DNA from: Candidatus Woesearchaeota archaeon
GTDB taxonomy: Archaea > Nanobdellota > Nanobdellia > Tiddalikarchaeales > Tiddalikarchaeaceae
NCBI GenBank assembly: GCA_964457955.1
Contig: CAYWEY010000001.1
Coordinates: forward strand, 38,277-99,978
Length of the DNA stretch: 61,702 nucleotides
Direction: 5' to 3'
Below the pieces are notes generated by a model that saw only the letters and a list, made by a program, of their open reading frames with translations, made no database searches and was not told where the DNA came from. Of the stretch, positions 25,400 through 41,919 are shown piece by piece (within the stretch, counting starts at the first letter, position 1; the number at the start of each line of letters is the position of its first letter). The position numbers were made by a program, and so were the translations under genes.

Positions 25400-26956
25400 T
25401 TAAAAATATTCCTGAAAAAAGTTGTTTAGTTTTTCTTTAGGCATTAATAAACTCTTTGCCACGTTTCTCAAAACTTTTTGTCTGGAACCGACTTTTTCAA
25501 CAGCAGTACTTATTGCTTTTTTGGTGACTCCGAAAGTTTTTTCAAAATCTTCAAAACTACTGCATTTCTCCAGTTTTTCACCAACACTATTCTTCCACGA
25601 TTCCTTCATTTCTATCAGTCTTTCAGCACGATAATAGAATCCTTTATCAGGATGTGATTCTGTGTTCTTAATTTTTATCCCAAATTTTTCAGGAAATATG
25701 CTTCCCGCCATTTCAGAAAATAATTTTAAATCCAGATTATCTTCCCTTACTTCACCATCAATATAGAACAATTCTTTCTTTATCTTAACCGAGTAAATAT
25801 CAGGAGCAACTGTTAGAGTCAGATTATACCAGGTAAGGCCTTCAATTAAGTGTTGGTTTGCTCTTAAGTTTGCTGTTTTTCCTGCACCTCCTGAACCATA
25901 CATTACTGATTTTGCTGCTCCTCCCAAATGCCCCATATCCTGCATATCCATCACATACCTTAATAATAATGGGAATAATCTACAGTTAACAAAATCAAGG
26001 CAGGGTCTTGCTGAAGTCATTATTGTTCCAATAATATTTGATTCCCCAACCTCATCTGTCTCTATTAATTTATTCCAATTCATTAAGTTGCCAATATTCT
26101 GGAGCAGTGATGTTATTTCTGAATTATGGGAAGGGTCTTCAGTTATGAAACTTAATCTCTTGGATAAGTCATAAAAGTCTTCCCACATATTACTATTATA
26201 AATAAAATCATTCCATTCCTTGAATGAAAATATTTCTTTAGTGAATTCGCTGTCTTCTTCAGAACCAAGATATTCTTCAACACTTTTCTTAACATTATTC
26301 CATGGCAGGATTTTTTTCAGCATATTAAATGATTTGTTCCATTCTTCATTAACATATTCTCTGGTGAATACTTTTTTTGCTCTTTTCAAAAAGAATTCTC
26401 CTTTCCTCTCATCCTGGTCAATACTGTACTTATTATTTATTCTCTTAATACTTCCTTCCTTATCCTCCAAATCTATTAAGGAATCAAGATGGGTTTTAAC
26501 AAGAACTAAAGTATGATAATTTTTCGGCAAGTGTTTGATATAAAAATTTCTCTGAGTATCATTATAATAATCTATGAGAGTATCAAGTGTTCTTAAATGC
26601 CTTGTTATATCACTGAATGCCATTCCATAAATGGCTCCCCCTGATACTGCTGTTCCTTTCTGTAAAAAATCTGCGAACCTATTCTGTCCTGCAGTATCCC
26701 ACATCTGCAGTCTTGATGCTGGAGTGTCTGGATCGTACTCGAAACCATTCACTATATCACCTAATCCTTCAATTCTCTGCATCATTAAAGACAAGTCATC
26801 ATAATTCTCTACTGTAAAATTATGCATTAAGTACCCTACTAATTCTTTTCCAGATATGCTGAATTTCTCACCAACCTTATTAAAATAATTAGTATATTCT
26901 GAAGAATCTATTTTTAATTCTTCCATAAATTTTTCACCATAATTTTCATATTCCAT
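25400..26956 (-). CDS. Ras/Rab-superfamily-related protein with non-canonical motif order (518 aa)
   Basis: LQMWDTAGQNRF (DTAGQ at aa 87-91, nt 26684-26698) closely matches the Rab switch-II motif WDTAGQERF. Canonical Walker A GSGGAGKT sits at aa 354-361 (nt 25874-25897), i.e. downstream of G3. Only a degenerate P-loop-like GEKFSISGKE (aa 29-38) occupies the expected G1 position. Confidence 0.6.
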   Translation of the reverse strand: MEYENYGEKFMEELKIDSSEYTNYFNKVGEKFSISGKELVGYLMHNFTVENYDDLSLMMQRIEGLGDIVNGFEYDPDTPASRLQMWDTAGQNRFADFLQKGTAVSGGAIYGMAFSDITRHLRTLDTLIDYYNDTQRNFYIKHLPKNYHTLVLVKTHLDSLIDLEDKEGSIKRINNKYSIDQDERKGEFFLKRAKKVFTREYVNEEWNKSFNMLKKILPWNNVKKSVEEYLGSEEDSEFTKEIFSFKEWNDFIYNSNMWEDFYDLSKRLSFITEDPSHNSEITSLLQNIGNLMNWNKLIETDEVGESNIIGTIMTSARPCLDFVNCRLFPLLLRYVMDMQDMGHLGGAAKSVMYGSGGAGKTANLRANQHLIEGLTWYNLTLTVAPDIYSVKIKKELFYIDGEVREDNLDLKLFSEMAGSIFPEKFGIKIKNTESHPDKGFYYRAERLIEMKESWKNSVGEKLEKCSSFEDFEKTFGVTKKAISTAVEKVGSRQKVLRNVAKSLLMPKEKLNNFFQEYF

Positions 26957-39289: not shown

Positions 39290-39352
39290 TTAAAACATAA
39301 TTCCAGAACATTTTCAAAAACTTTTTAAGAATATTTTTCTAAATTATATTTG

Positions 39353-40324
39353 ATGCTTGAAAAATTATTAGTGGATGAAAGAATTCCTTTAGAGAAGAGG
39401 AAGGTATTAAAGTACGTTGTTAATTCTCTAAGTCCTTTAAGTTTTGAACTCACAAAAGACACTCTTAATGCTGCAGATAGTTTGGAAGTTCCTGAACTTT
39501 ATGATTTTAACCACGGGCTTAAGAAAAAGAAAAAAGAATATAAAGGGTTCTTGAAAGATTTAAGAAATAATTTTTATAACGAGTTGAAATCAATCATTGT
39601 TTTCGGTTCTTTAGCGCAAGGTTATTACTGGCGCTCTAAAGAACTGATTGAGAAATGCGAGCCAGATGAAGATGCTTCTCATGAGAAGAAAATCTTGTTT
39701 TATAGTACGGTTCTTGACTTGTTTAATTATCCTAGAATGAGTGATGTCGACTTATGCCTAGTAGGGAGTGATGATTTAAATAGTAGTGAGGTTAAGAAAG
39801 AGTTAAGTAAGTCAAGTTTTTATTTTGAGCATGCTTCAATAATAAGTAAAAAGGACTTCACTGATTGTTTAAAAGATTTTTATAAATATACTAAAAAAGA
39901 TAAAGGTAATGCACCGACTAATTTTGAAGTAATTCTTTTCGAGCATGAAGAGGATGAGAAAGTTAGAGAATTGAGAAAGAAATTAGAAAGTTTGAGAACT
40001 GAAAAATATAATACAATGATTGATTATTCTCTCAAAAGATTAGATAATAATATAAACAGGGATGAGATTGTTTTCAGCCAAGCAACTGTTATTAAGGCAC
40101 TGCATCAGTCTTTTATTATTAATTTCGACCCGATGATAGGAGAAGTTTATTTGCCAACAATTAATGAATATTATAATAATATTAGTGGAGATTACAAAAG
40201 TTTTGTTAATAATTTTTTTTATGAAAGAGCAGTTAATGACATGCTCTCTTCAGAAAGGATTGATAAATGGCATTTTCTTAAAAGATACAGGAAAAGTATT
40301 CTTAATAATCTGAAAAACCTCTGA
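39353..40324 (+). CDS. nucleotidyltransferase-fold (Pol-beta superfamily/MNT-like) protein with helical C-terminal extension
   Basis: VFGSLAQG ... MSDVDLCLVG matches the minimal NTase motif G[SG]x9-13Dx[DE]. ATG at 39353 (the track start 39350 is TTG). Confidence 0.65.
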   Translation: MLEKLLVDERIPLEKRKVLKYVVNSLSPLSFELTKDTLNAADSLEVPELYDFNHGLKKKKKEYKGFLKDLRNNFYNELKSIIVFGSLAQGYYWRSKELIEKCEPDEDASHEKKILFYSTVLDLFNYPRMSDVDLCLVGSDDLNSSEVKKELSKSSFYFEHASIISKKDFTDCLKDFYKYTKKDKGNAPTNFEVILFEHEEDEKVRELRKKLESLRTEKYNTMIDYSLKRLDNNINRDEIVFSQATVIKALHQSFIINFDPMIGEVYLPTINEYYNNISGDYKSFVNNFFYERAVNDMLSSERIDKWHFLKRYRKSILNNLKNL

Positions 40325-41114
40325 TTCCTTCACTATTCTTTTTTCTTTTCTTATAATTTGCTCTTACAATATAATTGTCCCCGTCAGGTTTTATATGAAT
40401 TTCAACACCTTTATCTCTCTTATATAAATCAGTTACTACTTTTGTAACGTCTTCCATACTCATATCTTCAAAATGAAGAACTAATTCACAACCATCCTCA
40501 TCTTTTGATATGACTCCATTATCAGTTATTATGTCAGTATTGTCCTGAATGTCAGGTTTTTTTTCTTTTAATAATTCATCAAGACTTGCCTGATGAGTTA
40601 TCCTTTCTTTCTTCTTTTCCTCAATAACTATATTTGATAATTCTTTCAGACTTTCTTTAAAATCATTCCTTAATTCTCTTAAATAAGGTTTCTTATTATC
40701 TTCAAGTGAATATTTTTTAGAATCATAATCAATAAAACCAATTATATCAACTTCCCCCATTTCCATCTCTTTCCTGGCTTTCTCAATCTCTTCCCTGTAA
40801 TTTTGATTATTCTTCCAGGAATGCTTGTCCCTGAAGATTATTCCAAAAGATGCTCCTTTATAATAAACGTTTCTTATGAATTCAAATCTCTTCTGTTCAC
40901 CAATATTCCATAAACAACAAGTTATGAGTTCATTATCCTGTATGCTTATGTCAACAGTATTAATATCCAATCCAACTGTTAATTTATACTTTTCCTCAAA
41001 CCTGTTCTTCATAACATCATAAAATGAATTCTCAATTATTTCTTTAGAACTGAAAGAATCACATAATCCCAAATAAGGGTTTCTTACAACACCTTTAAGT
41101 TTATAACTGCTCAT
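40302..41114 (-). CDS. Rab-like small-GTPase-fold protein with degenerate G1/G3/G4 motifs plus C-terminal extension
   Basis: KYKLTVGLDINTVDISI...CCLWNIGEQKRFEFIRNVYYKGASFGIIFRD aligns with the Rab pattern sY.sTiGvdF..k.i...l.iWDTAGQERF..i...YYRGA.G.i.vyD. The P-loop position reads RNPYLGLCDS (no GK[ST]). DTAGQ is replaced by NIGEQ. Confidence 0.6.
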   Translation of the reverse strand: MSSYKLKGVVRNPYLGLCDSFSSKEIIENSFYDVMKNRFEEKYKLTVGLDINTVDISIQDNELITCCLWNIGEQKRFEFIRNVYYKGASFGIIFRDKHSWKNNQNYREEIEKARKEMEMGEVDIIGFIDYDSKKYSLEDNKKPYLRELRNDFKESLKELSNIVIEEKKKERITHQASLDELLKEKKPDIQDNTDIITDNGVISKDEDGCELVLHFEDMSMEDVTKVVTDLYKRDKGVEIHIKPDGDNYIVRANYKKRKKNSEGIRGFSDY

Positions 41115-41181
41115 TTTTTTTATTCACCAAAAAGATTTAATAAGGATTCTCATTTATTAATATTACTGACTACTGAGAGTT

Positions 41182-41919
41182 GTGAATAAATTGATGGATA
41201 TTCTTCAAAAAGCAGGTTTAACAAAGTATGAAGCAATGGCTTATGAAGGCTTAATAAAGAATAAGTCTTTAACAGGGTACGAGCTTGCTAAAATATCAAA
41301 AGTTCCTTCATCAAAGATTTATGAAGTTCTGAATAAATTAGTGAGCAAGGGATTGGTTTCAGCAACTCCTGGAAAGCCGAAAAAGTACGAAGCAGTGAAT
41401 CCAAAAACTGGTTTGAATAACTTGTTTTTTGAAAAAATAGAGGAAATTAATAAGAAGAGGAAGAAAGTTAATGATTACTTCAAGAAGCATAAGTTTGAGA
41501 AAGGTGAAGAAATAGTCACTGTCCACAAGTCGGATAAGTCAAGACTTAACATTTTTGAAAAAGACTTGAAGAATGCCAAAAAGTATTATTATTCTTTGTT
41601 CAAAAAGATTCCGTCAATCAATCACCCCGTAACTAAAATAATAAAGAAAAAAATGGATGAAGGTGTGGATTTGAAGAGTGTTGTGACTCTGACAAAAAAT
41701 AATAAAGAGAGATTAAAAAAGTGGAGGAAGAAATTCCCAGAAACTTACAGAACATCAAGCTATACGGAAAAAACACGATTCGCAGTAAGTGACGACAAAA
41801 TAGCACATATAACAATAGTTGGTCCCAAGAAGAAAATATTACTAAGAATAAGAGACATTGATTTTGCGAAAATAATGAAGAAAACATTCCTAGAAGTGTG
41901 GAAAAAAGCAAAATCTTAA
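41182..41919 (+). CDS. TrmB-family transcriptional regulator
   Basis: LQKAGLTKYEAMAYEGLIKNKSLTGYELAKISKVPSSKIYEVLNKLVSKGLV is the TrmB N-terminal wHTH. Track start is GTG; an ATG at 41194 is an alternative. Confidence 0.75.
   Translation: MNKLMDILQKAGLTKYEAMAYEGLIKNKSLTGYELAKISKVPSSKIYEVLNKLVSKGLVSATPGKPKKYEAVNPKTGLNNLFFEKIEEINKKRKKVNDYFKKHKFEKGEEIVTVHKSDKSRLNIFEKDLKNAKKYYYSLFKKIPSINHPVTKIIKKKMDEGVDLKSVVTLTKNNKERLKKWRKKFPETYRTSSYTEKTRFAVSDDKIAHITIVGPKKKILLRIRDIDFAKIMKKTFLEVWKKAKS

Follow-up and report, generated by a model that had tools for sequence, protein, structure and literature searches.

A Rab-like fold without its nucleotide-binding motifs, joined to a conserved C-terminal domain, in a small-genome archaeon

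Can a Rab-like protein that has lost the residues for holding GTP remain in use, and if so, as what? The question is raised by a gene, P0001, in a 61,702-nucleotide stretch of DNA (the window) from a Candidatus Woesearchaeota archaeon, which a first-pass annotation had described as encoding a Rab-like pseudo-GTPase that retains the fold signature and has lost its nucleotide-binding motifs. The source assembly spans 1.26 Mb and is 94.8% complete, the genomes of the whole class ranging from 0.5 to 1.2 Mb, and it is on these sizes that the organism is described here as DPANN-type. The ESM Atlas clusters to which the PolB of the window leads are archaeal, Altarchaeota being the most frequent among them.

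A Rab-like fold and the loss of its nucleotide-binding motifs

The gene and the G-like part of its product comprise the following features:
40302..41114, minus strand: P0001 gene, 270 codons plus stop, from its frame and translation
41124..41128, minus strand: Shine-Dalgarno-like motif GGTGA, 9 nt upstream of the P0001 ATG
40590..41114, minus strand: Rab-like G-fold remnant, residues 1 to ~175, from the AF2 model, VIA-align, Foldseek and Pfam
41037..41081, minus strand: degenerate P-loop region, residues 12-26 (NPYLGLCDSFSSKEI), from alignments
40827..41009, minus strand: switch I, interswitch, switch II and beta4, residues 36-96, from Pfam, alignments and PDB matches
40893..40910, minus strand: G3 remnant WNIGEQ, residues 69-74, from alignments

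The open frame around the gene extends over 273 codons, with three codons between the upstream stop and the ATG, and on the opposite strand the next gene begins after 67 bp. Thus, no P-loop is hidden upstream, and a frameshift or wrongly assigned start concealing such a motif is ruled out. In DNA of 30% GC a stop is expected roughly every 13 codons, and the likelihood of 270 open codons arising by chance at the base composition of the gene is ~2e-10. The GC content of the gene (0.29, compared with 0.31 for the window) represents native composition, and motifs resembling its GGTGA are found upstream of 16 of the 51 ORFs in the window.

The absence of any significant small-GTPase profile match was to count against the first-pass reading. 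The Pfam profiles Roc (PF08477; 36.5 bits, cut-off 27) and Ras (PF00071; 33.6 bits, cut-off 21.6) both exceeded their curated thresholds at residues 34-117, and so that reading is not refuted; the match covers profile positions 19-109 and excludes the P-loop part. An exhaustive phmmer search with P0001 identified 186 proteins at E<=1e-3, and the nearest solved structure by sequence is 7ezb, a Thorarchaeota Rab (E 3.6e-8), with Rab7/Ypt7 next in order. The AF2 model (mean pLDDT 66, core 78-88) displays the order beta1, alpha1, beta2, beta3, alpha2, beta4, alpha3, a short beta5 and a long helix at residues 141-173; of the six strands and five helices of the G-domain order, the beta6 strand is absent from the G-fold of this model. 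The AlphaFold comparison that had been proposed places the model among Rab GTPases: the top Foldseek matches are Rabs throughout (Rab11/Rab8/Rab1), VIA-align of residues 1-175 returned Ypt32 (Z 12.7, 151 residues aligned, rmsd 3.9) and Rab23 (Z 12.5), and in the ESM Atlas the highest target TM (0.71) belongs to a Thorarchaeota cluster without a Pfam assignment. The Rab likeness of the protein is far above chance, and the retention of the fold signature is borne out by the profiles, the significant PDB matches and the model alike.

The Rab-like region, originally placed at about residues 40-96, was located at residues 36-96, which bear the signature YKLTVGLD, W, QKRFEFIR and YYKGA. The RabF motifs are reportedly those set out by Pereira-Leal and Seabra in 2000, IGVDF, KLQIW, RFrsiT, YYRGA and LVYDIT. 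At these sites P0001 contains VGLDI, CCLWN, RFEFIR, YYKGA and IIFRD, a partial match in which RabF4 is the best preserved. The C-terminus of P0001, GIRGFSDY, contains no prenylation cysteine, and such a motif is missing from Asgard Rab-like proteins too (PMC10933270). Prediction of a homodimer from two copies of P0001 gave a score of 0.08 against a mark of 0.42, a result that speaks neither for nor against dimer binding.

The alignments show that G1, G3, G4 and G5 are all lost. In place of the G1 motif GxxxxGK[ST] there is CDSFSSKE, preceded by a six-residue insertion; both glycines and the Ser/Thr are gone, and K24 alone aligns with the P-loop lysine. The G3 sequence DxxG has become NIGE, in which Asp is replaced by Asn and Gly by Glu, while neither [NT]KxD (G4) nor SAK (G5) is present at the aligned positions or anywhere else in the G part. 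The protein retains the switch-I threonine (T46) and the switch-II glutamine (Q74). Class i pseudoGTPases, in the scheme of Stiegler and Boggon, are said to be those that keep the G-fold and do not bind nucleotide. P0001 resembles this class in its modelled fold and its missing motifs, and is predicted to be non-binding.

Relationship to Asgard Rab-like proteins

The affinity of the G-like domain lies outside the usual small GTPases of the class. P0001 scored 84.9 bits on a profile of Asgard motif-less proteins and 80.6 on Asgard canonical proteins, compared with 72.4 for other Rab-like proteins and 28.3 for the canonical small GTPases of its own class. It displays 36-48% identity with proteins of Promethearchaeota, Hermod- and Hodarchaeota over the first 94-125 residues, and 36-42% with Asgard Rab-like proteins over residues 1-125. 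The signature of this Asgard-type subfamily is YKLTVGVD...WDIGGQQRFEFIR.

The phylogeny that the first-pass annotation had called for was less uniform. A quick tree left the position of P0001 without resolution, whereas in a careful tree the protein is sister to the Asgard clade (100/78) and, with the motif columns removed, lies outside it (98/84). The motif loss common to P0001 and the Asgard forms may therefore be convergent. Two constrained trees, whose groups were chosen after the quick tree had been seen, both scored higher than the quick free tree: placing P0001 and P0002, its one full-length relative, with the Asgard motif-less clade improved lnL by +15.9 (p-AU 0.8), and placing them with all GTPases of the class by +7.2 (p-AU 0.62), and neither grouping is rejected. 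Taken together, profile scores and the careful tree assign the G-like domain to the Asgard Rab-like subfamily and not to the small GTPases usual in the class. Within that subfamily about 20 of 66 distinct sequences lack GK[ST], NKxD and SAK, and these form clades, indicating that motif-less Rab-likes are a recurrent and retained form; in the literature we found no paper on these members.

It had been suggested that the genome might be searched for a canonical partner GTPase. None emerged: in the 94.8%-complete assembly no intact Rab-like GTPase was found, and all that the search recovered was a Rab-like gene broken into three frames and one intact MMR_HSR1-type small GTPase, each on another contig, together with a 518-aa permuted-looking protein (25400..26956). 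The latter had been put forward as a second atypical Ras-superfamily member; Ras/Roc matches to it were indeed found, but all are sub-threshold (E 0.003).

The C-terminal part, a distant relative and competing explanations

Beyond the G-fold, and on either side of the gene, the following features were defined:
40545..40589, minus strand: charged linker, residues 176-190, low confidence
40347..40544, minus strand: predicted C-terminal alpha/beta domain, residues 191-256, from AF2 models and the P0002 alignment
40305..40346, minus strand: basic stretch and terminal peptide, residues 257-270, KKRKKNSE and then GIRGFSDY at the very end
39350..40324, plus strand: convergent neighbour of 324 aa, no known family, whose 3' end overlaps the P0001 gene by 23 nt
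41115..41181, no strand: divergent intergenic region of 67 bp between the P0001 and TrmB-family genes
41182..41919, plus strand: divergent TrmB-family regulator (Pfam TrmB, 1.8e-23)

A C-terminal extension, as first described, is present; its length, however, is ~95 aa rather than ~130 aa, because the helix at residues 141-173 aligns with Rab structures and the G-fold thus reaches to ~175. In the model pLDDT falls below 50 across residues 172-191. The following domain is predicted to consist of three strands, one helix and two strands, a topology identical in two models and of low confidence (pLDDT 55-70; 55 for a stand-alone AF2 model). Pfam, NCBIfam, PHROG and PADLOC yielded no match for this domain, the last three containing no match for P0001 or P0002 at all; a search of the ESM Atlas by features gave nothing usable, and VIA-align of the C-terminal model against 48,161 chains reached a best Z of 6.0, in the range of common arrangements. 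A C-terminal Roadblock domain, which with a G domain makes up the Rag/Gtr-type architecture, was looked for specifically: Robl_LC7 (Pfam) does not match P0001, hhalign of the domain against three Roadblock proteins of the same class gave a probability of 0.1, Roadblock is absent among the VIA matches of the low-confidence model, and the structural match of P0001 to LokiRagO is through its G domain only. An eight-residue motif, I[IV]T.NGV, common to P0001 and the end of a 482-aa protein in another genome (G001), proved not significant (E 0.45). The gene for the 482-aa protein lies upstream of tandem degenerate Rab-likes.

Among 1.8 billion representatives a single full-length relative, P0002 (34% identity; lineage from JGI sample 3300042731), was found. 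Word-indexed searches with P0001 and with a profile of both proteins returned these two only, two metagenome scans (with the C-terminal profile and with P0002) added no further member, and exhaustive phmmer located the C-terminal domain in no other protein. The family so far thus has two members, from two related metagenomic lineages. P0002 is also motif-less, lacking the P-loop lysine and the switch-I signature and containing LNPNQ as G3, and is no longer recognized by Pfam. Between the two proteins the G part is 25% identical and the C-terminal part 52%, the latter being 48% in residues 191-256 and 71% in the tail (257-270), where the last eight residues, GIRGFSDY, are invariant; by this comparison the C-terminal part is the best conserved.

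The genomic setting is also common to both lineages. P0152, a homologue of the 324-aa neighbour (63% identical), adjoins P0002, and in each case the P0001 or P0002 gene lies antisense between a ~320-aa gene and a TrmB regulator. In more distant relatives the homologue of the ~320-aa gene and the TrmB gene directly adjoin, and the P0001 gene is a lineage-specific insertion between them. Against PADLOC the 324-aa neighbour produced one weak match (PDC-S09, E 0.0019), in which no single stretch passes alone.

These data are probably best explained if P0001 is a functional, nucleotide-independent pseudoGTPase, built of an Asgard-type Rab-like fold, a charged linker, a conserved alpha/beta domain and the GIRGFSDY tail. 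As P0002 lacks the P-loop lysine and the switch-I signature, any function common to both proteins cannot need nucleotide. In such a protein the Asgard-type G-fold would no longer be able to hold GTP or Mg2+ and might instead serve as a rigid platform or as a surface to which proteins bind; docking of a partner would fall to the C-terminal domain and tail, in which the conserved function would reside. On this view P0001 would not switch at all but would act as a fixed adaptor, and the most likely reading of the protein is a binding module that lacks a switch. With two members only, constraint is beyond the reach of substitution-rate measures, which tells against the functional reading.

It could be argued that the gene is a functionless relic, a former Rab-like GTPase gene that is being lost from a shrinking symbiont genome. 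All the G motifs are gone; the G part is 25% identical where the neighbour is 63%, a gap also compatible with relaxed selection; a search of the eight remaining genomes of the family did not recover the gene; and the second Rab-like gene of the genome is split over three frames. The presence of other broken or degenerate genes in this genome is a further observation against function. Decay is, however, difficult to reconcile with full-length frames in both orthologues (270 codons in P0001 and 265 in P0002) at 30% GC and in lineages far enough apart for neighbouring proteins to be 63% identical, nor does it fit the 52% identity of the C-terminal part, its invariant last eight residues or the Shine-Dalgarno-like motif. 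We therefore consider it unlikely that the gene is merely decaying.

A second explanation, in which the pocket is non-canonical, constitutively bound or ATP-using, and the protein is not a nucleotide-free module but a switch that is slow or locked, draws on the retention of K24, T46 and Q74, which may leave room for weak binding in P0001 alone; non-canonical small GTPases do exist (review PMC13236570). In contrast with this view, both P-loop glycines and the Mg-binding Ser/Thr are lost, the loop carries its six-residue insertion, the DxxG aspartate, the base-specificity motif NKxD and SAK with beta6 are missing, and P0002 contains no equivalent of K24, T46 or Q74. A residual switch is quite improbable.

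Alternatively, the C-terminal domain alone may work, possibly being of mobile-element or viral origin, with the G-fold as a carrier acquired by fusion. This would be in keeping with the location of the conserved part and with the lineage-specific antisense insertion between genes that are adjacent in relatives, and a different genome of this class contains an 89-aa stand-alone ORF with a weak match to the C-terminal profile. That match (E 2.4e-4 for one genome, with 400 searched) is, however, near chance level and lacks the helix; moreover, PHROG and PADLOC provided no support, no repeats beyond AT-rich chance matches flank the gene, its base composition is native, and the domain occurs in no other protein by exhaustive phmmer. 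We regard such an origin as very improbable. Highly improbable, too, is a reading in which an Asgard archaeon, perhaps the symbiont's own host, was the source of the gene, and the protein now mimics host Rab-like (pseudo)GTPases through its retained interswitch face and new C-terminal docking domain, engaging the Rab-binding machinery of the host across cell-cell contact; bearing on this are the Asgard-type G-fold by profile and tree and the grouping with the motif-less clade, which is not rejected.

Comparison with known systems

The preferred reading, a nucleotide-independent binding module, may be set against three groups of known proteins. Mills et al. (2024, PMC10927574) reported small GTPases of the ArvA family or MMR_HSR1 type from Euryarchaeota and DPANN, and the genome of P0001 contains an intact one of MMR_HSR1 type; P0001 scores 28 bits against the canonical small GTPases of its class, compared with 81-85 on Asgard Rab-like profiles.

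PseudoGTPases have been described mainly in eukaryotes, and a full-text search for archaeal examples yielded general reviews only. Eukaryotic proteins that do not bind nucleotide include the pG1 and pG2 domains of p190RhoGAP (PMC5593906), AAGAB (PMC12490416), whose G domain is among the structural matches of P0001 (Z 8.4), and the pseudoRab EhRabX10 (PMC8514894). Like P0001 they have a motif-less G-fold, which acts as a protein-binding module where studied, and by analogy P0001 may function similarly. They are, however, of independent origin and have other partners, and none is archaeal or contains the C-terminal domain of P0001.

The closest counterparts are the Asgard Rab-likes, exemplified by Thor-Rab (PDB 7EZB/7EZD/7EZE; Tran et al. 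2024, PMC10933270), which provide the best solved-structure match and have in common with P0001 the fold, the signature YKLTVG.D, W, Q.RFEFIR and YKGA and, in Thor-Rab, the lack of prenylation cysteines. In contrast with these proteins, P0001 has lost G1/G3/G4/G5 and beta6, has a six-residue P-loop insertion and an added C-terminal domain and tail, and belongs to a small-genome, DPANN-type host. An Asgard-type Rab-like protein in such a genome bears on gene flow between both groups. Motif-less Asgard members (e.g. L013-L016, L023 and L044), a kind to which the best tblastn matches of P0001 belong, have likewise lost GK[ST], NKxD and SAK but not the interswitch signature; unlike P0001, most retain DxxGQ, and at 175-191 aa they lack the C-terminal domain. 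P0001 would represent a Rab-type fold, stripped of its nucleotide site and fused to an extra domain, that selection maintains in an archaeon whose genome is very small; being small and clonable, it lends itself to tests of nucleotide binding, structure determination and pull-down. Together with the many motif-less Asgard forms, it suggests that dead Rab-like folds were reused as fixed binding modules before eukaryotes, and that this reuse reaches beyond the Asgard archaea.

The gene and its Rab-like fold

40302..41114, minus strand: open reading frame of P0001, 270 codons

The window is archaeal, encoding PolB, an archaeal class I CCA-adding enzyme, NFACT, Lhr and TrmB, and belongs to an assembly of 1.26 Mb (94.8% complete; class relatives all 0.5-1.2 Mb). 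These genome sizes are the ground for describing the host as DPANN-type. The P0001 gene has a GC content of 0.29 vs 0.31 for the window. Its open frame spans 273 codons and a TrmB-family gene on the opposite strand starts 67 bp upstream; thus no N-terminal sequence of P0001 is hidden. A GGTGA motif lies 9 nt 5' of the ATG; 16 of the 51 window ORFs have a similar motif ahead of them. The 67-bp region also holds a direct repeat (TACTGAC TACTGAG, 41150..41165), a possible regulator site.

The first-pass annotation read P0001 as a Rab-like pseudo-GTPase, and this reading is upheld by profile matches, structural matches to Rabs and the loss of motifs. P0001 exceeded the Pfam cut-offs for Roc (36.5 bits, cut-off 27) and Ras (33.6 bits, cut-off 21.6) across residues 34-117, which correspond to profile positions 19-109, with the P-loop end of the profile unmatched. 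With phmmer, run exhaustively on 1.84 billion representatives, 186 matches reached E<=1e-3, almost all restricted to residues 34-115. The top solved-structure match was a Thorarchaeota Rab (7ezb, E 3.6e-8), followed by Ypt7, Rab7, Rab11, Rab23 and Rab1. The AlphaFold2 model, built from 64 aligned sequences (mean pLDDT 66; core 78-88), is ordered beta1, alpha1, beta2, beta3, alpha2, beta4, alpha3, a short beta5 and a long helix (141-173); beta6 is absent. Its top Foldseek ranks were exclusively Rabs, and its best ESM Atlas match by target (TM 0.71) was a Thorarchaeota cluster without a Pfam family. In VIA-align, Rab23 scored Z 12.5, and residues 1-175 matched Ypt32 with Z 12.7 (151 aligned, rmsd 3.9). 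The Rab likeness is therefore genuine, and as the alignment carries the G-like fold to around residue 175, the C-terminal extension is about 95 residues rather than the 130 first estimated.

The loss of all nucleotide-binding motifs, also proposed initially, was borne out by alignments with the nearest relatives. G1 (GxxxxGK[ST]) has become CDSFSSKE, preceded by a six-residue insertion, G3 (DxxGQ) reads NIGEQ, and both NKxD and SAK are absent. The nucleotide site thus appears, from its sequence, to be gone.

A single orthologue and the C-terminal part

P0002, a 265-residue protein from a 2.5-kb JGI metagenome contig, is the single full-length relative of P0001 (E 3.6e-27); no further family members were found with P0001, with a two-sequence profile or in metagenome contigs. 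It could be argued that P0001 is a decaying relic. The expected interval between stops in this DNA, however, is about 13 codons, and the chance of 270 open codons about 2e-10, such that two intact frames of this length argue for selection on the product; the relic explanation is thus unlikely. P0001 retains Lys K24, the switch-I Thr T46 and the switch-II Gln Q74, and might be viewed as a non-canonical nucleotide binder. P0002 is even more degenerate: it lacks the P-loop lysine, its switch I can no longer be discerned, the G3 region has become LNPNQ, and Pfam does not recognise it. We regard nucleotide binding of this kind as improbable.

Identity between P0001 and P0002 rises from 25% in the G part through 28% in the linker and 48% in the C-terminal domain (residues 191-256) to 71% in the tail, which ends in eight identical residues (GIRGFSDY). 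Set against the 63% identity between the neighbouring 324-residue protein and its homologue encoded beside P0002, this gradient indicates that the G part is fast-evolving and the C-terminal part constrained. That function resides solely in a C-terminal domain of foreign origin is an improbable explanation. Two models of residues 195-254 (pLDDT 55-73) concur on an order of three strands, one helix and two further strands; comparisons with families, the Atlas and known folds gave no match that stood out. The domain is followed by a basic stretch, KKRKK, and then the invariant octapeptide. A Roadblock identity was unsupported in family, fold and Roadblock comparisons. Separately, an 89-residue ORF in the related genome G021 (L128 1444..1713, plus strand), flanked by genes without assigned function, weakly matched the C-terminal profile (E 2.4e-4 for a single genome, with 400 genomes searched); it may be a relative of the domain and is a lead only.

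In G006 and G007, two genomes from the window's family, and in one Logan contig, the homologue of the 324-residue protein gene is followed directly by TrmB on the same strand and then by a metallophosphatase gene. In the window the P0001 gene lies antisense between the 324-residue protein gene and TrmB and, judged by gene layout, the P0002 contig likewise has a P0001-type gene antisense between the former and the next gene; in both, the 3' ends of the P0001-type gene and its 324-residue neighbour overlap. A search of the eight other genomes in the family did not recover P0001, and at the insertion there were neither flanking repeats nor matches to defence or phage families. The P0001-type gene is a lineage-specific insertion. 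The 324-residue protein (39350..40324, plus strand) is kept across the family, usually directly upstream of TrmB; Pfam, NCBIfam and PHROGs assign it to no family, PADLOC gave one weak match, and its G-S ... D-V-D pattern could be a nucleotidyltransferase motif with a long insert.

Asgard affinity and possible partners

A one-genome-per-species scan for P0001 relatives yielded 80 loci (identity 34-52%), the majority in MAGs titled Asgard (Promethearchaeota, Hermod-, Hod-, Odin- and Sigynarchaeota) and the remainder in unclassified bins ('uncultured archaeon'), apart from a Bathyarchaeota bin and another titled Flavobacteriales. Of 300 genomes from the class to which the window belongs, 21 encode related small GTPases, mostly with canonical motifs. 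P0001 scored 84.9 bits against the profile of Asgard motif-less proteins, 80.6 for Asgard canonical proteins, 72.4 for other Rab-like matches and 28.3 for the canonical GTPases of the class, an order that P0002 reproduces. A careful tree, omitting motif columns, P0002 and other long branches, gave (G053,(P0001, Asgard clade)), with support of 100/78 for P0001 plus Asgard and 98/84 for the Asgard clade without P0001. Scores and tree together identify P0001 as an Asgard-type Rab-like protein. Neither constraint was rejected when trees were forced to group P0001 and P0002 with the motif-less clade of Asgard proteins or, alternatively, with every GTPase of the class. P0001 may have come from Asgard archaea by transfer or may stem from an old family common to both; an artefact, too, would place a long branch at the clade base.

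A canonical partner GTPase had been suggested as a target for a genome search. With the Ras HMM and a subfamily profile, the 94.8%-complete assembly gave four finds including P0001, and no intact Rab-like GTPase. The other three, and a Roadblock/LC7 gene, are:

L002 1389..1868, contig C7, minus strand: split small-GTPase gene in three frames, with shifts at A7 and A6 runs
L006 1498..2130, contig C25, minus strand: intact small GTPase, 210 aa, all G motifs, best Pfam match MMR_HSR1
25400..26956 (window), minus strand: 518-aa protein, WDTAGQNRF near residue 85, GSGGAGKT near residue 355
L125 1474..1842, contig C2, plus strand: lone Roadblock/LC7 gene, immediately following a histidine kinase gene

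The split gene, of a type found in G063 and G042a, has an intact P-loop, GNRDD, TSAK and a shortened switch-I/beta2 region, and is either a pseudogene or a homopolymer assembly error. The C25 protein is the sole intact small GTPase found; ArvA is annotated under MMR_HSR1 (Mills et al. 2024, PMC10927574). The 518-residue protein, initially taken as a second atypical Ras-superfamily member, does match Ras and Roc, but below cut-off. The Roadblock/LC7 gene precedes two Cys-containing paralogues (158 and 172 aa); Roadblock was found in only 3 of the 31 related genomes searched, including G001, which encodes degenerate Rab-like proteins. As a candidate partner of P0001 its product is a lead, not evidence.

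Motif-less Rab-like proteins in archaea

In the nearest Asgard subfamily (loci L013-L092), about 20 of 66 distinct sequences lack GK[ST], NKxD and SAK, the last often replaced by SPT, and some also lack DxxG. All of these still have YKLTVGVD as well as the signature of switch II, and in trees they group into clades. The matches P0007, P0008 and P0026 carry Cys-rich extensions (CxxC ... CC). In G001, from the window's family, a minus-strand operon (L124 809..3232) comprises a gene for a 482-residue coiled-coil protein with a Pro-rich stretch and two tandem Rab-like genes (168 and 164 aa) that have lost all G motifs; successive genes share 23 and 4 nt at their ends, and the Rab-likes are translationally coupled to the coiled-coil gene.

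Our favoured reading, which we consider probable, is that P0001 is a selected, nucleotide-free Rab-like pseudoGTPase, in which the C-terminal domain and terminal peptide would carry the conserved function and the protein would act as a fixed adaptor. Eukaryotes are known to have dead G-folds; our literature search found no paper on archaeal pseudoGTPases. What is new in P0001 is the domain partnered with the dead G-fold, and a DPANN-type genome as host.
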